Shown: piece after piece, positions 946 through 61,753 of the stretch
Layout: every line of letters begins with the position of its first letter
How positions within the stretch are numbered: the stretch's first letter is position 1
DNA from: Synergistaceae bacterium
Lineage (GTDB): Bacteria > Synergistota > Synergistia > Synergistales > Aminobacteriaceae
Assembly (NCBI GenBank): GCA_017443945.1
Contig: JAFSXS010000052.1
Location: 11,160 to 75,159, forward strand
Length of the DNA: 64,000 nt
Direction of reading: 5' to 3'
Notes under the pieces: generated by a model
What the model was told of the DNA's origin: nothing
Seen by the model: only the letters and a program-made list of their open reading frames with translations
Database searches by the model: none
Made by a program: the position numbers and the translations under genes

Positions 946-3900
946 ATGCGCAGTAAAAGATTTGCAAGTTTGTTTATTATCGCGTTTATTGCAGTATTTA
1001 TATTCGCGGGTAATGCGTTTGCTGACATTGTTGACAGTAGCTCGCCCTATCACGTGTCAAAATGGACATCGTATCGGTATGTTAGTATCGGCTCGGTGTT
1101 TAGTGATTGGAATTCAGGAACTTTCGGCGGAAATTGTTTTATGTTTGCAAGGCTGGTAACTAATAGGCTCAAGAACGTAGATTTTAATCTTCAAGTTAAT
1201 GGAATGCGTGCTATAAGTAATATTAAAGGTGTCGGCCCTCTTGCAGGTAAGTCTGTAAGCAGTATATCTAGACTCATAGCACAACATTTTTACGATGTCA
1301 GCGGAAGTATTACAGAGCAGCAGGTGAAAAATGCTTTTGCCAATGCTAAGGAGGGTGATGTAGTTCAATTTAGGCGCAATTCAAACGCAGGCCAGCACAC
1401 ATTAATAATAGCTAAAGTATACAGCGACGGATTTACGACTCTTGAAGCAAATTCACCCTATGCAGGTACTATCAGCAATCAGGCCAGATATTATAAAGAT
1501 TTCGCTAAACAAATAAATCAAGCTAAAAATTTGGGCGGATTCTCTATTTACAGATTCGGAGTCGATGAAGTTGTACGGCCAAGCATTAAAACCGCTCCGT
1601 GGGGTGATAGAGTTTATGCAGGATATTATTACAGCTTTAAACCTACTGCAACGGGTTCAAATTTAACATGGAGCATTTCGAGCGGCAGTCTTCCGCCGGG
1701 ATTCTCGATTAATTCATCAACAGGCGAAATAAGCGGCACTGCTTCACACACTGCAAGCGGTAAATCCTCGAATATGTGGATAAGTTATATTTTCAATATT
1801 AAAGCGTCAAATTCCGCAGGAGAATCCGTAAAAGAAGCTTGGTTACCTGTGTGGGAGCCGCCTGTAATTGTAACGAATTCACCACTTCCAAACGGTACAC
1901 AGGGACAGTCTTACAGACAAGAAGTCAAAGCAGATGGCACAGCAATGAGTATGACATGGAGAGTCAAAAGCGGTTCTCTTCCTCCCGGACTTACACTTGG
2001 TAAAAGAAATTCTAATTTAGTTGCAGACCGCCGCTATGCTGTAATATCAGGAACACCTACACAGCCCGGTACTTATTCATTTGAGTTAGAATGTGATAAC
2101 GGCAATGGGTTTTATCCTAGAGGCATAGATACTAAGTGGTTTACAATTACTATCAAGGGTACGGAGCCTCCATATGACTCAAGTATCAACATAAATTATA
2201 CCTTCAAGACTCCTTGGTCGCGCGGGGTGTATTATTCTGACTGGGTCAAGACAAATGTTGACAACTATACATGGTTCCAGAATTTTGGCGAACTTCCTCC
2301 AGGTTTGAATATTAGTCGTTCAGGCAAGTATATTTATCTAAGAGGTACACCGACAAAGGCAGGCACTTACAATTTTGCGATAACTATATATAAAATCGCT
2401 AATGGCTGGTATTCAGGTCAAAGGTCGTTCTCATACACAGTTACAATCACAGATTCGAGCAATAATAGTGAATGGCGTTCTTCTGCTATGTCTACAACAT
2501 TTAATTATTTACCAGGCAAAATAGGCACGTCATACAATGATTATATACTCGTCAACGGCGGGGTCGCTCCATACACGGCAAGAATCGTCAGCGGTACAGC
2601 TCCATCAGGGCTAAAACTTTCAACATCAGGACGCTATATAAAATTCACAGGCACACCCAGAGGCCAATGGGGTAATTTCTCGTTTATATTGCGCATAGTT
2701 GGAGCAAATAAAGGCTATGTCGAAAAAAGGTGTTCAATTTACATAAATTATAACCCTGCTTATCCGGCCGGAGACAACGAGGAGGAAAGCCTGACAAAAC
2801 CTAAGATTATAACAAGCTCCCTTATTGACGCAAATGTAAACGCAGAATATTCCGCAGCAATCGAGGCAACCGGAGCAACGCCTATAACTTGGACTCTCAT
2901 AAACAGCAATTTACCGGAAGGCGTGAGCTTTGACGCAAACGAAGGCACAGTAACAGGCATTTTCACGGAAGCAGGCAAATATTCACTCACAGTCAAGGCT
3001 GATAACCCGGTAGGTTCAAAGACTAAGACCGTAAAAATTAAAGTCTTGCCAGCAAAACCGTTAATCATCACTGAAGAATTGCCTATGGGAGTATTGCGTG
3101 AAGAATATAATATCCCAATCGAGGCAGAAGGCACAGATCTTAAATTCTCTAAGAGCGGCAGTTTCCCAAGTGGACTTAAACTCGACAAGAAAACGGGATT
3201 AATTTACGGCACACCTAAGAGAGCAGGCACTTACACATTCACAATTACGGCCAAGAATAAAGCAGGCTCTGACTCGAAAGAATTTACGCTTGAGATTAAC
3301 CCTGGCGACCCGCCTTCTATTGATATTACGAGCTTACCCGATGGAACTGTGAAGACTTATTACGAGACTACGATTACAACATCAGGATCAAGCCCGATAA
3401 AATGGACTAAGAACGGGACTCTTCCTTCAGGACTCAAGCTCAACAAAAAAACGGGCATTTTGTCAGGTACACCTAGGAAGGCAGGCACTTATACATTCTC
3501 GATAACTGCAACGAATGACGCAGGCAGCGACACAAAAGAATTTGAACTCGTAATCAAGAATAATGCAGGAGGCAGCAATAATACGACCTCAAGCAATAAA
3601 GACGAAAGCGAGTCTAATTCCGGTAGCTATGGAGAAAACCGCCCGGTCGTCGAACTTGAAGCAAACGAAGACATCACCGGCAATTCAGGCAGCATTCAGA
3701 CTCATTTATATCTAGTCAGCGATGATGAAGACATAGAAGGATCTATCACTGTCGAACCCGATAAGGCTTTAACGTTCAAAATAGGCGAATGGGTCAATAG
3801 TTCCGGCGTTGCTGCAGAAGTATCTGACGTGAAAATCTTTATTGACTCTGAAGAAATTTCAAGCGATATAGTAATTTCTGATGATGAGTCTTTCGTTTTG

Positions 3901-4149
3901 CCGAGTGAGCTTGTAACGGGAGAATTTACAATTTATGCAAAGGCTCTCGCAGGAAGTCTCGAACTCACGACCAGAGAAATTAATATTATTGCAAATGACG
4001 ATGATATTAATAACGGTCAGAGTATAACAGCATCACAAAGCGGGAACACTGACGAAAACGGCACACTGAGCGCAGGGGGATGTAACATCAGCTTTGCAGG
4101 AGTTGTTTTACTCGTTTTGTGCGGCACTATGATATTCAGGAAGAAATAA
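946..4149 (+). CDS. 1067-aa surface protein: signal peptide, N-terminal papain-fold (CHAP/NlpC-P60-like) domain, about 9 He_PIG Ig-like repeats, acidic region, Synerg-CTERM-like tail
   Basis: SD aaggagg lies upstream of the ATG. The signal peptide is MRSKRFASLFIIAFIAVFIFAGNAFA. A Cys...His pair (GGNCFMFAR ... GQHTLIIAKV) resembles CHAP/NlpC-P60. Repeats carry LP.G..Y...I.A.G...I.W....LP.GL.L....G.I.GTP..AGTY.F. The C-terminus is SAGGCNISFAGVVLLVLCGTMIFRKK. Confidence 0.75.
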   Translation: MRSKRFASLFIIAFIAVFIFAGNAFADIVDSSSPYHVSKWTSYRYVSIGSVFSDWNSGTFGGNCFMFARLVTNRLKNVDFNLQVNGMRAISNIKGVGPLAGKSVSSISRLIAQHFYDVSGSITEQQVKNAFANAKEGDVVQFRRNSNAGQHTLIIAKVYSDGFTTLEANSPYAGTISNQARYYKDFAKQINQAKNLGGFSIYRFGVDEVVRPSIKTAPWGDRVYAGYYYSFKPTATGSNLTWSISSGSLPPGFSINSSTGEISGTASHTASGKSSNMWISYIFNIKASNSAGESVKEAWLPVWEPPVIVTNSPLPNGTQGQSYRQEVKADGTAMSMTWRVKSGSLPPGLTLGKRNSNLVADRRYAVISGTPTQPGTYSFELECDNGNGFYPRGIDTKWFTITIKGTEPPYDSSININYTFKTPWSRGVYYSDWVKTNVDNYTWFQNFGELPPGLNISRSGKYIYLRGTPTKAGTYNFAITIYKIANGWYSGQRSFSYTVTITDSSNNSEWRSSAMSTTFNYLPGKIGTSYNDYILVNGGVAPYTARIVSGTAPSGLKLSTSGRYIKFTGTPRGQWGNFSFILRIVGANKGYVEKRCSIYINYNPAYPAGDNEEESLTKPKIITSSLIDANVNAEYSAAIEATGATPITWTLINSNLPEGVSFDANEGTVTGIFTEAGKYSLTVKADNPVGSKTKTVKIKVLPAKPLIITEELPMGVLREEYNIPIEAEGTDLKFSKSGSFPSGLKLDKKTGLIYGTPKRAGTYTFTITAKNKAGSDSKEFTLEINPGDPPSIDITSLPDGTVKTYYETTITTSGSSPIKWTKNGTLPSGLKLNKKTGILSGTPRKAGTYTFSITATNDAGSDTKEFELVIKNNAGGSNNTTSSNKDESESNSGSYGENRPVVELEANEDITGNSGSIQTHLYLVSDDEDIEGSITVEPDKALTFKIGEWVNSSGVAAEVSDVKIFIDSEEISSDIVISDDESFVLPSELVTGEFTIYAKALAGSLELTTREINIIANDDDINNGQSITASQSGNTDENGTLSAGGCNISFAGVVLLVLCGTMIFRKK

Positions 4150-4162
4150 TTTATTTTGCTTT

Positions 4163-4194
4163 TCCCCCTTGTTAACGCGAGGGGGATTTTTTTT
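4163..4194 (+). terminator. intrinsic terminator after the surface-protein gene
   Basis: Stem TCCCCCT (4163-4169) pairs with AGGGGGA (4180-4186), followed by a T8 run. Confidence 0.7.
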
Positions 4195-4233
4195 GCGGTT
4201 ATAATATATATAAATTTTAGGGAGGCTATAATC

Positions 4234-4713
4234 TTGCAGGAAGTCTTGAATAAATTAAACGAGCTTGGCATTAATTACGAACTCGAAGAACATGAAGCAG
4301 TCTTTACAATCGAGGCAATTATAAAACTTGGCCTGAACAAACGCGGAATGATTCCAGTAAATTTATTTTTGCGCGACGCTAACGGGAAGAGACATTTTTT
4401 AGTGATCCATGACGGCGAGAAACAAACTGACCTCAAAAAATTGCGTGAACAAATTATTTGCTCGCGTTTGAGCTTTGGCTCTGAAGAAAGATTATATAAA
4501 CATTTAGGACTCACAAAAGGTTCCGTGTCTCCGTTCGGGCTGATAAATAATATAAATAATGACGTAGAATTAATCATTGACTCAAGCATAAGAAATCAGC
4601 CGCTTTTAGGTTTTCACCCGAATATAAATACTGCGACTGTTTGGCTTAGTTATCAGGATTTCATGAAATTTGTTAATGCCTGCGGGAATCCTGTAAAATT
4701 TGTTGACTGCTAG
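4234..4713 (+). CDS. YbaK/ProX-type aminoacyl-tRNA deacylase domain protein
   Basis: The track ORF starts at 4156 inside the upstream terminator. An in-frame TTG at 4234 is preceded by GGAGG (4221-4225). The sequence ...GSVSPFGLINN...ELIIDSS... fits the YbaK/aaRS-associated editing domain. Confidence 0.65.
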   Translation: MQEVLNKLNELGINYELEEHEAVFTIEAIIKLGLNKRGMIPVNLFLRDANGKRHFLVIHDGEKQTDLKKLREQIICSRLSFGSEERLYKHLGLTKGSVSPFGLINNINNDVELIIDSSIRNQPLLGFHPNINTATVWLSYQDFMKFVNACGNPVKFVDC

Positions 4714-16142: not shown

Positions 16143-17522
16143 ATGCAGGATTTAAATACGCGTGAAACTTTAGGGAGCAGATTAGGATTTATATTTTTGT
16201 CGGCCGGTTGTGCGATAGGACTCGGCAACGTTTGGAGATTTCCATTTATTACGGGTCAATACGGCGGGGCAGCATTTGTACTGATTTATATATTCTTTCT
16301 GTTATTTCTTGCTCTGCCGATTCTCGTAATGGAATTTGCTGTAGGCCGTGCGTCGCAAAAAAGTGTGAGTCAATCATTTGAAGTCTTAGCACCGAAAAAT
16401 AAAATTTGGTCATTATGGGGTTATGCGGGCTGGTTCGGCTGTATATTATTAATGATGTATTACACAGTAGTAGCCGGCTGGATGATTGCTTATACAGTTT
16501 ATGCGGGGGCTGGTATTCTTGAAGGCATTACCCCCGATGAGGTCGGAGCAGTTTTCGGCGGTCTCGTGTCAAATCCTGAACGCAGTGCATTATGGCTCTA
16601 TGTTGCTGTATCGATAGGCTTTATAGTTTGTTGTGCAGGTCTGAGAAACGGAGTCGAGCGTGTTACAAAAATTATGATGTGCGGTTTGTTAATTATCATG
16701 GTTGCGCTTGCAGTAAGATCTGTAACTTTGCCGGGATCTGATAAGGGATTGAGCTTTTATTTGAAACCTAGCTTTGAGAATCTCACAGCAAAAGGATTCT
16801 GGACGAGTGTTTATGCAGCATTAGGACAGGCATTTTTTACGCTGGGACTCGGAGTCGGGAGCATGGCAATTTTCGGAAGTTACATCAGCAAAGAAAAATC
16901 TTTAATGGGCGAGAGTTTAATTATCACCTGCCTTGACACTTTTGTAGCGTTGACAGCAGGATTAATAATTTTTCCAGCTTGCTTTGCATATGGAATAAAT
17001 CCGGGTGCGGGGCCGGGCTTAATATTTGTAACACTTCCGAACATGTTTAACTCAATGCCGAACGGTCGAATCTGGGGAACGTTATTTTTCTTGTTCATGA
17101 GCTTTGCTGCTTTATCGACAGTAATTGCAGTCTTTGAAAATATAATTGCGTGCTTCATGGACAAATTTAATATGAAGAGAGTCCCTGCTTCAATAATTAC
17201 GTGCGTAGGAATATTTATTTTGTCTCTGCCGTGTGCGTTCGGGTTTAATATTTGGTCAGGATTCCAGCCTTTGGGAGCGGGTTCAAACGTGTTAGACCTT
17301 GAAGATTTTATATTGAGTAATAATATTTTGCCGATTGGGACGACGATTTATTTATTATTCTGCGTGACTCGATATGGCTGGGGCTGGGACAATTTCATTA
17401 AAGAAGTTGACTCAGGCGACGGACTCAAGTTCCCGAAATTTTTGCGCGGATATTTAACATATGTAGTGCCGGTTATAATGCTGATAATTTTTGTAGTTGG
17501 TTACTGGGAAAAATTTTTCTAG
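16143..17522 (+). CDS. NSS/SNF family transporter, paralogue 2 (tandem duplicate)
   Basis: Same length (459 aa) as paralogue 1, with long stretches identical to it, for example [35 protein letters not shown]. Confidence 0.9.
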   Translation: [459 protein letters not shown]

Positions 17523-17677
17523 CTTTAACGGCTGATTTGTATTAAAATGGTTGTCGAGCAGTTCTCAAAATTTTATGGGAGCTGCTTTATTTTTGCAACT
17601 ACATTTACAACTACAAAAACTCGCAAATTTTTTAGTGTACGCAAATGTTCATGAATAAAAATTTTTTCTTAACGCGA

Positions 17678-18060
17678 TAAATTATGACTCACAAAAAAAC
17701 TTTTTTCCCCACGTGCGACAAATTATGCCGGGCGTAAGAATCTGCACATTTTAGAGTGATATAAAATTTTTTCTCGAATGCGCTAATTTCTGTACAATAA
17801 ATTATGAATCACAAAAAACTTTTTCCCCCACGTGTGGCGAATTATGCCGGGCGTAAGAATCTATACATTTTAGAGTGATATAAAATTTTTTCTCGAATGC
17901 GCTAATTTCTGTACAATAAATTATGAATCACAAAAACTTTTTTCCCCACGTGCGACAAATTATGCCGGGCGTAAGAATCTGCACATTTTAGAGCGATATA
18001 AAATTTTTCTCGAATGCGTTAATTTCTGTGCTATAAATTATGACTCACAAAAACTTTTTC
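17678..18060. repeat. core of a tandem array of ~117-120-bp units (3 near-identical copies plus the start of a fourth); decayed copies extend to about 17655 and 18400
   Basis: The anchor TAAATTATGA(C/A)TCAC recurs at 17678, 17798, 17917 and 18034. Units differ mainly by indels in A/T/C homopolymers. Each unit contains CACGTG and TGATATAAAAT. Confidence 0.9.
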
Positions 18061-18413
18061 CACGTGCGACTTCATTAATCACGCAGAAGAATCTATAAAT
18101 GCGAAAAAATATTTTACAGCCGACCCGCTTGTGCATTATCAGCCGCTCCCGTCTGAAATAATTTCTTGCGCGAATATGCAAAAGTTTTTACAGCTATTCA
18201 ATTACATTTGATACATAAAAATTTTTGTCAATGCGCTCTAGTGAATTATTATAATAGCAAATTTTTACAGATTGGGCCGGTTGTGCGTCATCATCTATTA
18301 CTGTTGCTCACAACATAAATATTTTTTACACGTCATAAAGTGAACAGCTAATAAATTTTTCAAGTATTCATTATGTTATAATTATCGCAAGTTATAGAGG
18401 GAGGTTATTACAA

Positions 18414-18774: not shown

Positions 18775-21279
18775 ATGAGGATTTATCACAACATACCGGC
18801 ACTCACAGCGTATAACTCGTTAAGCGCGACGAATACAGCTATGGAGAAATCAATTCAGAAGCTCTCAACAGGTTTGAGAATTAACTCGGCAGCAGATGAC
18901 GCAGCAGGATTCGCAATCAGTGAAAAAATGCGTTCACAGATTAACGGACTCAATATCGCAATCAGAAACACTCAGGACGCTACGTCAATGCTTCAGGTCG
19001 CAGAAGGTGCACTCGGCGAGACTAACTCAATGCTTCAGAGAATGCGCGAGCTTTCTGTTCAGGCTTCAAACGATACATTGACATCACAAGACAGAAGTTA
19101 TATACAGCTTGAAATCGATCAGCTTGTCGACCAGATTAACAGAGTCGCAACTACTACACAGTTCAACAAGAAGAGATTACTTGACGGCAGCTCGGCAGGT
19201 ATTACATCATCAAGCAATTTGAGCGTTAAAGCATTCGTTCGCGGTTCACTCAGAGAGATTGACCAGTTCGGACAGAAAAAATCTTTTGAGGGCAACTATA
19301 AAATTAAAGTTACAGTCGATCCTAACCAGACAGGACAAGGACAAGTGCAGAAGTCAGCAATCATGACAATCAAGCACCCGAACGTCATTACAAACGTAGA
19401 GACAAACAGCAATGACGGAATTGTAAAAGTTGCAGTCGATAATTTACCCGCAGCAAATTTTGAAGTAACAGCAGATACAACAGCACCCACAGCAGCAACT
19501 GCTACTATTTCATCATTCTACGGCTTCGGCAATACAAGCGACAACCCTGTAGCTCTTGACGATGTTAATAATTACTTCACAACTACTCCTTCAGCAACAG
19601 CAGATATTAACAACGCAAGCATTTTATTTGAAATTACTTCTACGAGCGAGGACAGCATTACTCTTAAAGCACAGTCAAATATTTTAGGACTCGACGGAAC
19701 AGTAAACAGTGCCGTAATGGAAAATATTATCCTGAAATATGACGGTACAACTCCGCCAACTGTTGACCTTTCTAAACTTGTTGACGCTAAAGACGCAAAC
19801 GGCGCAGCTGTAGAAGGTGCTTTTACGATGTCATTCGGTTCTGGTGTAACAAGTGCTGACGATCTCGCGGTTATGCAGAGAGGAAATAAATTTGTTCTCA
19901 ATGTAAGAGGCTTCAACGGTGCTACAACGACTACTGCTGCTGATATGGCTGTAAATATTGCCGCGACTCAGGATCCCGACTGGCCTTACAACTGGGCAGA
20001 TAATACAGCGGGAGTAAGCGTTTTCGGCGATACAGATCCGGCTAACCCGAATCCTGACAGAACAATATCATATAATTTGAACTCTGCAGCGTGTCAGGAA
20101 AAAGATTTACATTTCCGTAATTATTATCTCGACAGCCAGAGAGGAACTATTTATGACGGCGATGTTATCGTTACAACCGACAGTAAATTTGATGCAGCAA
20201 GTGTGATTCAGAACGGCGACGTTCTCTCGAAATTTACAGCAGCTTACATCGGCAAGACAGCAACAGGAGATACAAAGCTCCGTGATTTAAATACATTCTG
20301 GAACACTTCCGGCGTATTCATGCTTGATAATCCTCAGACTATCACTATCACGCAGGGAGACGGCAAGAAAGCAAGCGTTACCCTTTATGCAACTGATACG
20401 CTTAATGAAGTCCGCGCGAAATTCAACAGCGCAATTGCAAACGATCTCGGCCAATCTCAATATGTAGACGGCGCATACTCTGATTATTTCTGCACATTTG
20501 TAGAAAAAACTCAGGGAGTCGACATGCCCGCGCAGGGTCTCGAAACAGTACCCGGCACGTTTATATTCAGGTCATTGCTTGCGGGGCCTGCAGGTGATTT
20601 GACGTTCAGCGGCGACGAAGATTTAATTAACACTCTTGCATTCAACGTCGTAAAGGACAGCTCCGTTGCAGCCTTCCAAGCATCAATTTATGACGCTCAC
20701 ACAGGTACGCCCATTGCAACAAATGTAAAAGTTTCTGATAATCACTTAATCGGAATCTTGCATGAAAACGTTGACATCGAATTTGACGCTATGGCCGGCG
20801 TTCAAGCAACATGGAGCGAGGCAGAAAGAAACTTCATTCTTACTCCTCAAAGCAGAGGCTATGAAGCAACAGTTCACATCGTCGACAGCTCTACAGTTTT
20901 CCAGATCGGCGCAAATGAGGGCGAAGATATTGCAATCGACATCGGCAACATGTCAGCAGCTTCACTCGGAATCACGAAAGTAAACGTTGCAACACGTGAG
21001 ACAGCAACAAAGGCTATCGGAATCATCGATCACGCAATCATCATGGTATCGAGCCAGCGCGCTAAAATCGGTGCATATCAGAACGCACTTGACTACACAA
21101 GCGAGAACTTGACAACAACAATGACGAACTTGAGCGCAGCAGAGTCCAGAATCAGAGACGCAGACATGGCGCAGGAAATGATGGAGTTCGTAAAACTTCA
21201 GATCCTCAACCAGTCCGGCACATCAATGCTCGCACAGGCAAATCAGCTTCCACAATCAGTGTTAAGTCTGTTACAATAA
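18775..21279 (+). CDS. fliC: flagellin, giant form (834 aa) with a ~560-aa central variable region
   Basis: N-terminus [16 protein letters not shown]...[28 protein letters not shown]-terminus ...[14 protein letters not shown]...[46 protein letters not shown]. Confidence 0.93.
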
Positions 21280-42061: not shown

Positions 42062-42090
42062 TTGCAGACTTTCCGGCGAGATATTATAAT
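42062..42090 (+). promoter_or_regulatory. sigma-70-like promoter for the phosphoethanolamine-transferase locus
   Basis: TTGCAG (42062-42067), a 17-nt spacer, then TATAAT (42085-42090). Confidence 0.5.
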
Positions 42091-42123
42091 CACTGTAAAT
42101 TATTATACATTGGAGGAGAATCT

Positions 42124-42195
42124 ATGCTCTTGACGGAACGGCACGGAACGGCACGGAACGGCATAGCGTTATTTCGTGGTGTCTTGAGTGGCTGA
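42124..42195 (+). CDS. 23-codon ORF with a strong SD; most simply read as the out-of-frame 5' end of the downstream transferase gene
   Basis: GGAGGAG (42112-42118) lies 5 nt before the ATG. Translation is MLLTERHGTARNGIALFRGVLSG*. The 10-bp x3 repeat sits inside it. Confidence 0.5.
   Translation: MLLTERHGTARNGIALFRGVLSG
42133..42163 (+). repeat. perfect decanucleotide repeat (ACGGAACGGC) x3.1
   Basis: It reads acggaacggc acggaacggc acggaacggc a. The unit length is not a multiple of 3. Confidence 0.95.
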
Positions 42196-42230
42196 ACAGT
42201 GAGAAAAATTTTATTTTCTGGCTAATAGCG

Positions 42231-43835
42231 TTGAATCTTATCACTATAGTCGGAGATTTGAAGGGCAGCAGCAATTTACGAAAAATTTTACATTTTGGGT
42301 GCAGCCTGTCAATTATCTTAATGTATGTAACACTTGCAAGTTTGTTGATATATTTATTTCTTCGCAGATTTAGAGTCGTTCACAAGTTCGTAAAATTTAT
42401 TTTTCTGGCTGTAAATGCGGTATTCTTTGCGTTAGATTTATTCACAGTATATTATTATCACATACGATTTAATATATTAATGCTGAATATTGCTCTAATG
42501 ACAAATTTTCGCGAGGGCAGCGAGTTTTTACAGATGTATCTGTTAAATAAATCTTTCTGGCTGTTCGTTCTTGCTATAATTGCGTTGATATTTATTGCTC
42601 GTAAAGTTTGGCAGATAGCATTTAAACCCGGTAAATTAATTTTGTGTCTGCTCATAATATTTTTATTTGCTGGAATATTCTCATCCGTAAGAGAAATTTC
42701 TATGGGCAACGGCCGAAAAAGAGACATAACAAATTATCTCGGATTCACAAGATTTTGCTGTATGACTGCAAGATATTACAATGCCAGCAGAGAATATAAT
42801 AAAGTTTTAAGCGAGCCTAATGCAGTAATCACAAAAAATTTGAGAAGCATTCCATATATAATATTTATTCTCGGTGAGTCGGCTGCAAGACATCACATGA
42901 GCATTTACGGTTATGATCTGCCTACGAGTCCAAATCTTGAAAAACGTCAAATATATATATTCAATGATGTTGTATGCGCTGAACCACACACTGTAGCTTC
43001 AGTTAGAAAAATGTTTACGTTTCATAATAATGAGCTCCCCGGCCCATGGTATAATTACATGAATTTATTTAGCATTCTTAAAGCAGCAGGTTATTATAAT
43101 ATTTGGCTCTCAAATCAGGAAGTTTATATAGGACTTGACGCTATAAATTTTTATGTGAATATTTGCGATGAAAGACATTTTATCGAGTTTAAATCTTACT
43201 GGGACGGCGGGTCGGCTTATGATGATAGTCTGCTCCCCATACTTGACGAAAAATTAACGCATTCTCGCGAGAAAAATTTTTACATGCTCCACTTGAATGG
43301 CAGTCACGTAGCTTATAAAAATAGATACCCGGCAGAATACGCAAAATTTACGGCCAAAGACGAAATAAGCGGCTATTCCGGTATAACTGAATCAGAAAAA
43401 ATTACCCGCGCAGAATATGATAATACTATATTATATAATGATTATGTCCTGAACGAAATTATTAAACGCTTTGAGGACAAGAACGCAATAATTATTTATA
43501 CTTCGGATCACGGGCAGGAAGTATATGATCTTATTAGCTCGGCTGGACATGGCTGGTTTCAGACGCGCAATGTTGCTGAAGTACCGTTTTTAATTTGGAC
43601 ATCGAGAAAATTTTGCGAGTCATATCCCGATTTAGACGCAAGAATTAAATCAAGCGTTGACCGGCCTTACATGACAGATGATGTTATTCATACAATTTTA
43701 GATATTGCAGGAATAGAGACTCCCGGCTATGATCCCGCAAAAAGTGTAATTAATGCAAAATTCGACTCGTCCCGGCCAAGAATTAATAAAGATTATATTT
43801 ACACTAAGGAGAAAGGTTTAATTGAGGTACAGTAA
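42231..43835 (+). CDS. phosphoethanolamine transferase (EptA/EptB-like; N-terminal TM domain + sulfatase-fold domain); body of a probably phase-variable gene
   Basis: Five or so TM helices, then the sulfatase-type motifs ILGESAARHHMSIYGY, HLNGSH and YTSDHGQ. The track start (TTG 42231) has no SD. The same frame is open back to 42099. Confidence 0.8.
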   Translation: MNLITIVGDLKGSSNLRKILHFGCSLSIILMYVTLASLLIYLFLRRFRVVHKFVKFIFLAVNAVFFALDLFTVYYYHIRFNILMLNIALMTNFREGSEFLQMYLLNKSFWLFVLAIIALIFIARKVWQIAFKPGKLILCLLIIFLFAGIFSSVREISMGNGRKRDITNYLGFTRFCCMTARYYNASREYNKVLSEPNAVITKNLRSIPYIIFILGESAARHHMSIYGYDLPTSPNLEKRQIYIFNDVVCAEPHTVASVRKMFTFHNNELPGPWYNYMNLFSILKAAGYYNIWLSNQEVYIGLDAINFYVNICDERHFIEFKSYWDGGSAYDDSLLPILDEKLTHSREKNFYMLHLNGSHVAYKNRYPAEYAKFTAKDEISGYSGITESEKITRAEYDNTILYNDYVLNEIIKRFEDKNAIIIYTSDHGQEVYDLISSAGHGWFQTRNVAEVPFLIWTSRKFCESYPDLDARIKSSVDRPYMTDDVIHTILDIAGIETPGYDPAKSVINAKFDSSRPRINKDYIYTKEKGLIEVQ

Positions 43836-44157
43836 CATTTTTTCGCGGTTATTCAATGCCTCGCGTTACTCTCTGGAGGGCTTGTATTATGCGTTGACTC
43901 ATGAGCAGGCTTTCCAGTATGAGTTTATCATGCTGATTATAATAATTTTGGCTGGAAAATCTTTATTGCTTGCGGGAGCGTGGCTCATTGTGATGTGTCT
44001 TGAACTTATAAACTCTGCTGTCGAGAAAGCATTTGACTTAATCGATAAAAATTTTAGACACGAGATCAAAGCCGGCAAAGACATGCTCTCATGCGCTATT
44101 TTTCTTGCTGTATGCTTTAATATAATTTTATGGGGGTATGTTATTATAATGCAATAA
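43822..44157 (+). CDS. dgkA: diacylglycerol kinase
   Basis: RYSLEGLYYALTHEQAFQYE...ELINSAVEKAFDLI......AGKDMLSCAIFLAV matches the DgkA pattern. It overlaps the transferase stop by 14 nt. Confidence 0.8.
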   Translation: MRYSNIFSRLFNASRYSLEGLYYALTHEQAFQYEFIMLIIIILAGKSLLLAGAWLIVMCLELINSAVEKAFDLIDKNFRHEIKAGKDMLSCAIFLAVCFNIILWGYVIIMQ

Positions 44158-51670: not shown

Positions 51671-51685
51671 GGGTGGGTGGGTGGG
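51671..51685 (+). other. canonical G-quadruplex motif GGGTGGGTGGGTGGG
   Basis: Read directly. It lies in the 512-bp gap between clpB and the NurA-like gene. A second copy is at 61724-61739. Confidence 0.85.
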
Positions 51686-51900: not shown

Positions 51901-54507
51901 TTATTCGAACGAGAAAATTAATTCTCCTGCTTTAACGTCAATATTTACACGAGTCTTTTCTCGGATTCCTCCGGCAATTAATGCACGCGCTAATTTCGTT
52001 TCTACATTGTGAGTGATATAACGCTTCAACGGCCTTGCACCGTAAACAGGATCATAACCTGCCGACGCGATAAAGGCCAATGCTTCATCAGAAAAATTTA
52101 ATTCGATCTGACGTTCTGCGAGCCTCTCTGACAAACGGGAAAGCAAAATTTTCACGATTGATTTCACTTCATCCTGCGTCAATGGCTTAAAGAATACTAT
52201 ATCATCAACTCTATTCAGAAATTCCGGCCTAAAATGTTCCCTCAATGCCTGCATAACTTCCTCGCGCGCTGATAATGCAATAGTATCGCCTACAATATTA
52301 TCAAGCAAAATCTGCGAGCCTATATTACTTGTCATGATAATAACTGTATTCTTGAAGTCTACTAAATGGCCGTGAGAGTCTGTTATTCTGCCGTCGTCCA
52401 AAACTTGCAGCAAAATATTAAACACGTCCGGATGAGCCTTCTCGATCTCGTCAAATAATATAACGCTGTAGGGTCTGCGCCTGACTGCTTCTGTTAATTG
52501 TCCGCCCTCGTCGTAACCTACATAGCCGGGGGGTGCTCCTACTAAACGCGAGACAGAATGTTTCTCCATATATTCGCTCATATCGATACGAATCATATTT
52601 TCTTCGCTGTCAAAGAGTGCTTCTGCGAGAGTCCTTGCGAGTTCAGTTTTTCCGACTCCTGTTGGCCCTAAGAATATAAATGAACCGATCGGGCGCTTTG
52701 GATCCTTTATTCCGCTTCGTGCGCGCAAAACTGCATCGGCTACGAGATTTACAGCTTCGTTTTGACCCACGACTCTTTTGTGTAAAATTTCGTCGAGCTT
52801 TAATAATTTTTCGCGTTCACCCTCTAATAACCGCGTTACAGGAATACCAGTCCAGCGGCTTACGATGTCGGCGATTTCGTCTTCTGTTACTTCTTCACGT
52901 AATAATTTCTTGCTGTCTGAGTCTGATTCTGATTTAACTTTCTCGGCAGCCTTTAATGACTCTTCTAATTCGCGCAATTTTCCATAACGTAATTCAGCAG
53001 CTTTGTTCAAATTATATTCACGTTCGGCGCGTTCGATTTCTGATTTAACGTTTTCGATCTGCGAGCGTAAATCCCTGATTCCGGAAATAGATTTTTTCTC
53101 GGCCTCATATTTTGCGCGTAAAGTATCAGCCTGCGTGCGTGCCTCCTGTAATTCTTCCTGCAATTTTTCGAGTCTTTCTTTGGAAGCGTCGTCGCTCTCG
53201 TGCTTTAATGCTGTCTCCTCGATTTCTAACTGCATAACTTTTCTTGATGCTGCGTCGAGTTCTGAAGGCTGCGAGTCAATTTCCGTGCGCAACATTGCAC
53301 ATGCTTCATCGACTAAATCAATTGCTTTATCTGGCAAAAATCTATTTGTTATATAACGATTCGAGAGTACAGCCGCACTCACAAGCGCATTATCACGAAT
53401 TACGACTCCGTGATGAACTTGCAATTTTTCACGAATCCCGCGCAAAATTGAAATTGTATCCTCGACTGAAGGCTGTTCAACGTCAACAGGCTGGAATCTT
53501 CGGGCAAGTGCTGCGTCTTTCTCGATATATTTGCGATATTCATCAACTGTAGTTGCGCCTATACAGTGAAGTTCACCGCGTGCGAGCATAGGTTTTAACA
53601 TGTTGCCTGCGTCGACTGCTCCTTCTGCTGCACCTGCTCCGACTATAGTGTGAAGTTCATCGATAAATAATAAGATTCGTCCGTCAGAGTTCTTTATCTC
53701 GTTTAGTACGGCTTTGAGTCGTTCTTCAAATTCACCGCGATATTTTGCACCCGCAATTAATGACCCCATATCAAGAGCAAAAACTGTACGATCCTTCAAG
53801 CCTTCGGGAACATCACCGCGCACGATTCTTTGTGCAAGACCTTCAACTATTGCTGTTTTACCGACTCCGGGATCGCCGATTAAGACGGGATTATTTTTTG
53901 TTTTGCGCGATAAAATTCTGATTACGCGTCTAATTTCGTCATCACGTCCGATAACGGGATCTAATTTTCCGTTTTTAGCAGCTTCTACTAAATCGCGGCC
54001 GTATTTTTCTAGTGCTTGATATGTTGCTTCAGGGTCTGCGCTTTGGACTCTTTGTGAGCCGCGTACAGAATTTAGAGTCTGTAAAAATTTTTCTTCTGTA
54101 ATGCCCAGCCGTGAAAAGATTCTGCCTGAAGGTGTATTACTGCCTTCACTCAACATAGCTAAAAATATATGTTCGACTGATGTATATTCGTCTTTGAGAG
54201 ATTTTGCGCGTTCGTCTGCACGATTTAATAAACGTTCGAGTCTTTGAGTGATGTAAATTTTTCCTTCCTCGACGCCCGAACCTGTAACTCTAGGCAATTT
54301 CGATAATTCGTCGTCTACAGATTTTGCGAGCGCACTTGTATTCACTCCCATACGCTTTAATAGTTGATTAATCAAGCCTTCTGAATCTTTTAACAATGCT
54401 GCTAATAAATGTTCTGTATCTACCTGCTGATGATTATATTCTGATGCTATTGCGCTTGCCTGCTGTAGTGCTTCTTGACTCTTGCGTGTTAATTTCTCTG
54501 CTGCCAT
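51901..54507 (-). CDS. clpB: ATP-dependent chaperone ClpB
   Basis: 868 aa with two AAA+ modules ([16 protein letters not shown]), a long middle coiled coil, and a Clp N-domain. Confidence 0.97.
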
Positions 54508-54606: not shown

Positions 54607-54624
54607 CCCCCCCCCCCCCCCCCC
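54607..54624 (+). repeat. homopolymeric C18 tract (G18 on the clpB sense strand) within a wider C-rich block that extends to 54642
   Basis: Read directly: aa C18 gg C6 t CCC aa CCCC ga GGGGGG. It lies in the divergent clpB/flavodoxin intergenic region. Confidence 0.9.
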
Positions 54625-54735
54625 GGCCCCCCTCCCAACCCCGAGGGGGGAGAAAAAATTATTACATTTGCTATAAACTATGCTTGAATGTATATTATTA
54701 TTTACAAAAATTTTATCAGAAGGAGAAATTATCAC

Positions 54736-55209
54736 ATGAGCAACAAATTAGTAGCTTATTTCTCAGCAAGCGGCACAACAGGCAATATCGCAAAAAAATT
54801 AGCTGAATCAATCGGCGCAGACTTATACGAGATCAAACCTGCAGTAAAATATACAAGCGCAGATTTAAACTGGAATAACAGAAGTTCCCGTAGCAGTATC
54901 GAAATGCGCGACAAGTCATCACGTCCCGAACTCGCAGACAAGAACGCAAAAATTTCCGGCCATGATGTTATTTTTCTGGGCTTCCCAATTTGGTGGTACG
55001 TTGCACCGACGATAATTAACACTTTTCTCGAAAGCTACGATTTTACGGGCAAGAAAATTATTTTATTCGCTACATCGGGCGGATCGGGATTCGGTCAGGC
55101 CGTCGCAGGTTTACAGCCAAGCGCACCGGGGGCAAAAATTGTCGAGGGAAAATTATTTAACCGTTCTGTCAGTCCTGATGAGTTAAAGAAGTGGGCAGAA
55201 AGTTTTTAG
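54736..55209 (+). CDS. flavodoxin family protein
   Basis: MSNKLVAYFSASGTTGNIAKKLAE...IFLGFPIWW...ILFATSGGSG. The ATG at 54736 has AAGGAG upstream. Confidence 0.8.
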   Translation: MSNKLVAYFSASGTTGNIAKKLAESIGADLYEIKPAVKYTSADLNWNNRSSRSSIEMRDKSSRPELADKNAKISGHDVIFLGFPIWWYVAPTIINTFLESYDFTGKKIILFATSGGSGFGQAVAGLQPSAPGAKIVEGKLFNRSVSPDELKKWAESF

Positions 55210-61581: not shown

Positions 61582-61655
61582 TGGCTGGGGAGGCTGGAGT
61601 CGAACCAACATTTACGGATCCAAAGTCCGGCGTCCTGCCATTGGACTACTCCCCA
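61582..61655 (-). tRNA. tRNA-Gln (TTG)
   Basis: The reverse complement TGGGGAGTAGTCCAATGGCAGGACGCCGGACTTTGGATCCG...GGTTCGACTCCAGCCTCCCCAGCCA has a U1-A72 pair, G73, and an encoded CCA. Confidence 0.85.
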
Positions 61656-61713: not shown

Positions 61714-61753
61714 GCCGCCGAGCGGGGTGGGTGGGTGGGAGCGAGGCGGCGGC
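61714..61753. other. 7-bp GC stem (GCCGCCG/CGGCGGC) enclosing a 26-nt loop that contains GGGGTGGGTGGGTGGG
   Basis: Read directly. It lies 15-54 nt downstream of the ftsH stop and upstream of tRNA-Gln on the minus strand. Confidence 0.8.

Follow-up and report, generated by a model that had tools for sequence, protein, structure and literature searches.

A decanucleotide repeat as the likely translational switch of a phosphoethanolamine-transferase gene in rumen Synergistaceae

Organization of the locus

The sequence analysed here, referred to as the window, is a 64,000-nucleotide (nt) stretch of contig JAFSXS010000052.1 from an uncultured Synergistaceae bacterium (assembly GCA_017443945.1), and the element in question is a 10-base simple sequence repeat that lies between a start codon and the reading frame of a phosphoethanolamine (PEtn) transferase gene (ept). 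The features of this region are all on the forward strand. A sigma-70-like promoter is read from the sequence at 42062-42090, with the -35 element TTGCAG at 42062-42067, a 17-nt spacer and the -10 element TATAAT at 42085-42090; a promoter scan found the same site, scored as TTTGCA-18-TATAAT with 10 of 12 matches. The Shine-Dalgarno (SD) sequence GGAGGAG (42112-42118) lies 5 nt 5' of an ATG (42124-42126) that is considered the true start, and this codon opens the conserved leader ATGCTCTTG (Met-Leu-Leu, 42124-42132). The repeat, three copies of ACGGAACGGC at 42133-42162, begins 9 nt after ATG 42124 and would serve as the switch; Tandem Repeats Finder (TRF) reports 3.1 copies at 42133-42163, with 100% matches and a score of 62. 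The unit of 10 bases is not divisible by 3, and the tract, which is free of stops in all forward frames, translates into the cyclic peptide TERHGTARNG. Two units joined as a 20-mer have no second occurrence in the 64-kb window (0 expected, from 100 shuffles).

With three copies, the frame of ATG 42124 translates to MLLTERHGTARNGIALFRGVLSG and ends at TGA 42193-42195, leaving a short open reading frame (ORF) of 23 codons (42124-42195). The transferase frame has no stop from 42099 onwards, and the first ATG, GTG or TTG in it is TTG 42231, giving a product of 534 amino acids (aa). The intervening segment of this frame, HSVISWCLEWLNSEKNFIFWLIAL (42162-42230), is conserved. Two elements lie in it, the LEWLxxExxFIFW motif of the family and the N-terminal half of the first transmembrane (TM) helix, and translation from ATG 42124 enters it only at copy numbers n equal to 1 modulo 3. 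The rest of the gene, as mechanically called from the TTG (42231-43835), encodes the other half of TM1, the predicted TM2-5 and a periplasmic catalytic domain of sulfatase fold; its stop is overlapped by 14 nt by dgkA (diacylglycerol kinase, 43822-44157; Pfam DAGK_prokar, E=9.9e-20). Rebuilding the tract in silico yields an ORF of 573 aa from ATG 42124 for n = 4 and of 563 aa for n = 1. In the remaining phases of the window allele the frame ends at TGA 42193 (n = 0 modulo 3) or, by reading of the sequence, at TAG 42164-42166 (n = 2 modulo 3). A first-pass annotation of this DNA had described the same anatomy, namely a triple decamer separating an SD-led ATG from the transferase frame, a promoter and consensus SD ahead of that ATG, a 23-codon ATG frame beside a transferase frame with no ATG, and repair of the frame by four copies or by one; each of these points is confirmed by the sequence, TRF, the promoter scan and the rebuilt alleles.

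The transferase and its partner dgkA

The product of the transferase gene matches Pfam Sulfatase (PF00884) with E=3.8e-49, and its match to EptA_B_N is weak (19.6 bits, below the cutoff of 22.3). Matches in the PDB are Escherichia coli EptC (5zzu, 1.7e-51), Neisseria NmEptA (5fgn, 1e-22) and also MCR-1. In the phmmer alignment to 5fgn, GES/GET is found at E240, PHT/TST at T280, GSH/GSH at H383 and SDHG/SDHG at D452/H453, so that the equivalents of the catalytic Glu, Thr, His, Asp and His of NmEptA (E240, T280, H383, D452, H453) are kept in the window protein. We take E240, T280, D452 and H453, plus H383, to be the catalytic Thr nucleophile and the Zn ligands of NmEptA. The alignment to full-length NmEptA spans residues 71-535, and the hydropathy of the protein in the in-frame (ON) state shows five hydrophobic segments (residues 33-51, 65-83, 92-110, 143-161 and 174-192). 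With five predicted TM segments followed by a periplasmic catalytic domain as in EptA, the N-terminal tail is probably cytoplasmic.

Among the NCBIfam models the best match is the CptA subfamily NF007933 (E=7.1e-70), with a score of 236 bits where the cutoff is 404, and both EptA equivalog models also score below their cutoffs (NF007160, 139 against 561; NF008619, 112 against 660). The similarities thus make the window protein a member of the PEtn-transferase family that is closest to the core-modifying EptC/CptA rather than to the lipid A enzyme EptA; as its scores lie below the equivalog cutoffs, no specific acceptor can be assigned. The first-pass annotation had proposed a PEtn transferase with a lipid A and polymyxin phenotype. 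The first part is supported by the sulfatase domain and by the EptC and EptA matches, and the second becomes just one possibility for an enzyme closest to EptC/CptA.

In the 19 related loci with listed gene calls, dgkA lies 3' of the transferase gene, except in L037, where no gene was called in the dgkA interval, and in L050, where the contig ends. Overlap or adjacency of the two genes is kept in L002, L036, L038-L041 and L043-L049, and from this arrangement dgkA is probably translationally coupled to the transferase. The kinase would recycle the diacylglycerol left after PEtn is taken from phosphatidylethanolamine (PE), and the overlap fits a transferase that consumes PE. This linkage is read as supportive context for PE as the donor and is not a formal criterion of the PEtn-transferase family.

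Copy number and phase of the decamer in relatives

Relatives were found by homologue search and by looking for the 20-mer of two units in public genomes and metagenomes. All of the decamer alleles come from metagenome bins of rumen or ruminant origin (goat reticulum, red deer). In at least five lineages of rumen Synergistaceae ept begins with ATGCTYYTG and the decamer, the latter present in 2, 3, 5, 6, 7, 8 or 10 copies. Of the ten other loci with the decamer, nine have ATGCTYYTG 5' of it and L015 has ATGCTATC instead, and a purine-rich SD is found at the same position in L001, L002, L003, L036 and L045. In an alignment of four diverged loci the -35 (TTGCA), the -10 (TAnAAT), part of the SD and ATGCT are invariant, and the tract is 100% conserved in nt sequence as against a mean column identity of 65% over the whole leader alignment. 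The proteins beneath this shared leader are only 47-53% identical.

The number of units, and with it the phase, varies among these loci. The window and L043, an independent assembly 99.86% identical to it, both have n = 3 and are out of frame (OFF). The relative L001, with 91% aa identity to the window, has n = 7 and is ON, and L045, whose flank is 88% identical and whose gene is mosaic, has n = 2 and is OFF. Lineage B contains L002 (n = 3, ON by virtue of a spacer 1 nt longer) and L004 (n = 5, OFF). Lineage C contains L036 and L044 (both n = 6), L038 (n = 2) and L013 (n = 8), all OFF, and the related L003 has n = 10 and is ON. The flanks are 97.9% identical in nt sequence within lineage B (n = 3, 5) and 98.5-100% identical within lineage C (n = 2, 6, 6, 8); as n differs between flanks that are nearly identical, near-identical strains differ by whole units and in phase. 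Two further states are not readable: in L037, of lineage C, the tract contains a scaffold gap of undetermined bases (N-gap; L037:1563-1661), and the contig of L015, a metagenome-assembled genome (MAG) from red deer, ends in the tract, 6 nt past three units (L015:3199-3234). Mixed tract lengths within those two samples could be reflected in the gap and the break.

The in-frame alleles read through the tract as MLLTERHGTARNG... into the conserved N-terminus. Called full-length homologues begin with the predicted leader, encoded by ATGCTYYTG: P0002 (91% identical, MLLTERHGTARNGTERHGTARNGTERHSVISW...), P0003 (51%) and P0004 (47%), and these are natural ON alleles with n = 7, n = 3 plus the spacer longer by 1 nt, and n = 10, respectively. 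In the out-of-frame alleles a stop is reached after at most 37 codons, and in the window allele after 10-23 codons in the wrong phases. The slipped-strand ON/OFF switch that had been proposed from the window alone is hence supported by orthologues: the comparison of loci that was suggested as a check finds copy numbers of 2-10, phases that differ as predicted, and ON alleles with the predicted leader.

Since repeats do disturb assemblies here (the gap in L037 and the contig end in L015), the window allele might in principle be a tract of at least four units that was collapsed by short-read assembly, which would leave a normal gene. The first-pass annotation had named such a collapse of a fixed four-copy allele among the findings that would refute a switch. 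The 30-base tract is shorter than a sequencing read, however, and the NCBI MAG and the ENA assembly ERZ28019071 independently give n = 3 with zero differences across the gene, so that a collapse of this kind is extremely improbable.

Several observations on the wider neighbourhood of these alleles were made alongside. The L045 allele is a mosaic when compared with the window (L045:294-1154 against 42222-43037): the upstream region and leader are 88% identical, the 3' half of ept and dgkA 78%, and the half encoding the membrane domain has no detectable nt similarity to the window, the whole protein being 48% identical. This pattern suggests either that the TM domain was replaced by recombination or that it diverged very fast, 3' of a leader that stayed conserved. 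In L002 (1-3481) ept-dgkA lies downstream of an rnf operon, and in L003 (1-3382) downstream of SBP_bac_3 genes with a beta-lactamase-family gene further downstream; neither pair follows rpsI-DUF4230, and as these neighbourhoods differ, the ept-dgkA module or its surroundings moved. A neighbour-joining tree of the protein bodies is star-like and does not settle the branching order, and a single as against a multiple origin of the decamer is not drawn from it.

The 20-mer search also returned matches outside the ept locus. Those in Streptomyces and other GC-rich genomes have two units only and were judged to be chance. Low-GC metagenome contigs in which no long ORF is near the decamer have two or three units of it (L021, at 787-816, and L026, L027, L031 and L033); L021 has three units where its four near-identical counterparts have two. 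These contexts, and those of L020/L032 and L029, were set aside as unrelated to ept.

The start codon and its annotation

The N-terminal motif (C/L)LEWLxxExxFIFW(M)xxLN(L)T is also present in homologues that lack the repeat (P0006, P0009, P0014); it is therefore part of the mature protein, and any later start truncates the enzyme. TTG 42231 falls inside TM1, and a start there drops the LEWL..FIFW motif and half of TM1. The first-pass annotation had already described this TTG as a start without an SD that cuts a hydrophobic segment. In the window sequence no SD is found upstream of it, the segment that it cuts is TM1, and it is not conserved, being TTA in the nearest relative, L001. The identical protein body is deposited at NCBI as MBQ7577661.1, with its start annotated at a still later TTG. 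No conserved alternative start was found in the orthologues compared, and both TTG codons were rejected as the real start, as neither is conserved and both cut TM1.

Gene callers systematically start OFF alleles internally, giving 525 aa from the later TTG at NCBI and 534, 540, 548 and 550 aa at or just after FIFW(M) at ENA. In MAGs, out-of-frame contingency genes are thus entered as proteins with a truncated N-terminus.

These annotated products of 525 or 534 aa, together with a leader stop that lies only 36 nt before TTG 42231, could be taken to mean that the n = 3 allele is still expressed, by way of either TTG, by reinitiation after the 23-codon ORF or by programmed frameshifting, with the repeat merely tuning the level. 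Such expression is very unlikely in view of the missing SD, the TTA in L001 and the loss of a family-wide motif from the resulting product. Programmed -1/+1 frameshifting was considered and rejected: no X XXY YYZ slippery heptamer is seen in 42124-42195, and the OFF alleles of relatives occupy both wrong frames, which lies beyond rescue by one conserved frameshift signal.

Purifying selection and the state of the window lineage

Between the window (OFF) and L001 (ON), the ratio of non-synonymous to synonymous substitution rates (dN/dS) is 0.149 at a dS of 0.34, over 557 codons. None of these codons is a stop, and from the repeat to TTG 42231 the two proteins do not differ. The gene thus stayed functional over a divergence in which the tract changed phase. 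The signature in these codons is that of a contingency gene under purifying selection rather than of a decaying pseudogene.

Short tracts mutate more slowly than long ones in repeat-mediated phase variation. It may be asked, then, whether the window tract has shrunk to a nearly stable three units, leaving a recently silenced pseudogene at a locus that was a switch in the ancestors and is still one in the sister lineages. The n = 3 state of both the window and the independent L043 and the identical 534-aa call P0121 on four contigs, all of necessity out of frame, would agree with a locked allele. Set against this are the intact downstream codons without stop or frameshift, the dN/dS value relative to an ON allele and the retained catalytic residues. 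Sister lineage C, furthermore, combines alleles of two, six and eight units, and in Haemophilus influenzae hsdM a pentanucleotide tract of four units switches at high rates (PMC2651432). A locked-OFF allele is accordingly regarded as unlikely, while being the strongest of the alternatives to a gene that still switches.

Some of these same facts, and a few others, weigh against reading the window as a live contingency locus. Most alleles are OFF, at 15 of the 20 contigs with a complete tract and 6 of the 11 distinct lineage/copy-number alleles; this excess fits random phase (it is close to the expected two-thirds) or selection for OFF, and it also fits recurrent inactivation. The agreement of the window and L043 at n = 3 is a weak test, as only two sequences are readable in the lineage, and P0121 is out of frame on all four of its contigs. 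With only three units, the slippage rate may be low. All of the evidence, finally, compares consensus assemblies rather than read-level or single-clone data. The first-pass annotation had named a fixed three-copy tract as a finding that would speak against a switch; relatives vary, which favours switching, and the window lineage has n = 3 in both readable assemblies, which does not. Switching in the window's own lineage would thus follow by extension from its sister lineages.

Proposed switching mechanism

On balance the locus is very probably a contingency locus, in which a PEtn-transferase gene is switched by a simple sequence repeat, with a probability of roughly 85%. This judgement draws on the anatomy of the region, the copy-number differences among near-identical strains of sister lineages, the ON alleles with the predicted leader, the purifying selection on the gene and the lack of a conserved alternative start. 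Transcription would begin from the promoter at 42062-42090 and translation from the SD-led ATG 42124, passing after 9 bases into the (ACGGAACGGC)n tract. Slipped-strand mispairing in replication would add or remove a 10-base unit and shift the frame by one. With n = 1 modulo 3 (1, 4, 7, 10) the gene would be ON, and the product would consist of a hydrophilic tail, the LEWL..FIFW motif, five TM helices and the periplasmic catalytic domain, each added unit only lengthening the N-terminal tail by TERHGTARNG. In the other two phases an early stop would leave no functional enzyme, and translation of dgkA would probably be lowered too. The window allele, at n = 3, would be OFF, and a gain of one unit or a loss of two would turn it ON.

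We infer that the unit changes arise by replication slippage and are frequent and reversible within a clone. The switched phenotype would be the presence or absence of PEtn on the lipopolysaccharide (LPS) core, on lipid A or on another periplasmic or envelope acceptor, presumably a surface structure on which phage, cationic peptides, antibody or grazers exert a fluctuating selection. If so, an envelope-modifying PEtn transferase, and probably its partner dgkA as well, is subject to stochastic switching in rumen Synergistaceae. A switch would be possible with a 10-nt unit, and lineages would keep the switch in one place even as they replace one repeat sequence by another. The tract also offers a ready marker of strain-level heterogeneity in rumen metagenomes, and the counts of PEtn-transferase (mcr-like) genes in resistome surveys may include alleles that are in the OFF phase.

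Other repeat types at the same position

Orthologues with the gene order rplM, rpsI, DUF4230 (opposite strand), ept, dgkA and dnaJ carry other repeats directly 3' of their start codons. GACAC is present in ten copies in L039 and L040, which are OFF, and in six copies, as inferred from the protein sequence, in P0132, which belongs to the same 90% cluster and is ON. CCACA is present in four copies in L041 (ON). GACCA occurs six times in L049 and L050, which are OFF and would need four or seven copies to be ON, and CACAA twice in L046-L048, likewise OFF and in need of three. P0134 and P0133, from one 90% cluster, differ by five residues of an HHTTP repeat, equal to three pentamer units, and by one substitution. 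A decayed CACAC-type tract is found in L042. This locus has two tandem ept paralogues between DUF4230 and dgkA (L042:1157-2935 and 3001-4713), of which the first (P0027) is without a repeat and the second (P0026) has the decayed CACAC/TACAC tract after its ATG.

Taken together, at least five repeat types lying 0-9 nt after the start could mean that non-pathogenic rumen Synergistaceae share a contingency locus that is old and family-wide, with selection acting on switchability itself and with repeated re-invention or transfer of the switch cassette. The odds of this broader proposal are judged to be about even. If true, it would place repeat-mediated phase variation in a gut commensal phylum where it is undescribed, and its driver might be predation by phage or protozoa, not host immunity.

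Other repeats in the window

Three further kinds of repeat were recorded in the window, away from the ept locus. The C homopolymer at 54607-54625 (19 C, continued by GGCCCCCCTCCCAACCCC; C-rich to 54643) lies between the divergent genes clpB (51901-54507, reverse strand) and flavodoxin (54688-55209, forward strand). A homopolymer of this length is hypermutable and could change promoter spacing for clpB or the flavodoxin gene. At 17677-18070, 3.4 tandem copies of a 119-bp unit (91% matches) lie in a 1.25-kb gap that has no ORF of at least 70 aa and lies between an ORF end at 17522 and an ORF start at 18775. Two intergenic tracts of (GGGT)x3.8 are found at 51671-51685 and 61725-61739, the second about 70 nt from a tRNA gene (61585-61655).

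Comparison with known systems

Repeat-driven phase variation is textbook knowledge in the host-adapted genera Neisseria, Haemophilus, Campylobacter and Helicobacter, and to our knowledge it is hardly documented in uncultured commensals of the gut or rumen. In the searchable literature, no match was found for Synergistetes or Synergistota together with phase variation or repeats.

The first-pass annotation had pointed to phase-variable PEtn transferases of Neisseria that use homopolymers, correctly so. In N. gonorrhoeae, eptA (lptA) varies through a poly-T tract that is ON at T8 and OFF at T9, with a switching frequency of about 1e-4 according to Kandler et al. 2014 as summarised in PMC6111236. 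The gonococcal system shares with the window locus a membrane enzyme of the PEtn transferase superfamily (a sulfatase fold and, by prediction for the window protein, 5 TM helices), a repeat in the 5' coding region and a translational switch in which a slippage frameshift truncates the product. It differs in having a homopolymer in place of a 10-nt unit and a lipid A EptA in place of an EptC/CptA-like enzyme, and it is known from a human pathogen with a measured frequency, whereas the window belongs to a rumen commensal of the Synergistota.

In N. meningitidis, pptA, encoding the pilin phosphorylcholine transferase, has a poly-G coding tract that is in frame in some strains and out of frame in others (PMC3656113). 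Both loci are thus phospho-form transferases switched by a repeat in the coding region, with both tract phases found among strains. The poly-G homopolymer, however, lies in the protein body, where even an in-frame change to 11G inactivates, whereas the tail encoded by the window tract is predicted to tolerate 1 to 10 units. PptA is a member of the same PEtn-transferase family.

E. coli EptC/CptA (PDB 5zzu, NF007933) is the best match in both the structure-database and the family search, with the same domain order and catalytic residues, yet the window protein falls short of the NCBIfam cutoff and is not an equivalog. We do not know of E. coli eptC being phase-variable.

With respect to the form of the switch, the closest parallels are genes with multi-base repeats. 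The opa genes of Neisseria carry (CTCTT)n in the region coding for the signal peptide. Coding repeats of this kind are also found in H. influenzae, in licA (CAAT)n, lgtC (GACA)n and hsdM (GACGA)n (PMC2651432). As in the window, the repeat of these genes lies right after the start codon in a dispensable leader that is open in three frames, n sets the frame, and the genes concern surface structures, with n varying between strains. Their units are of 4-5 nt, in contrast to the 10 nt of the window locus, and the orthologues of the latter swap units at one position. A unit of 10 nt is the upper limit considered in repeat surveys (PMC5231331), and no characterised decanucleotide switch was found in the literature searched. 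New here are therefore the phylum, a unit of ten nucleotides and the replacement of one repeat type by another at a position that is conserved, while the mechanism itself is the one known from these pathogens.

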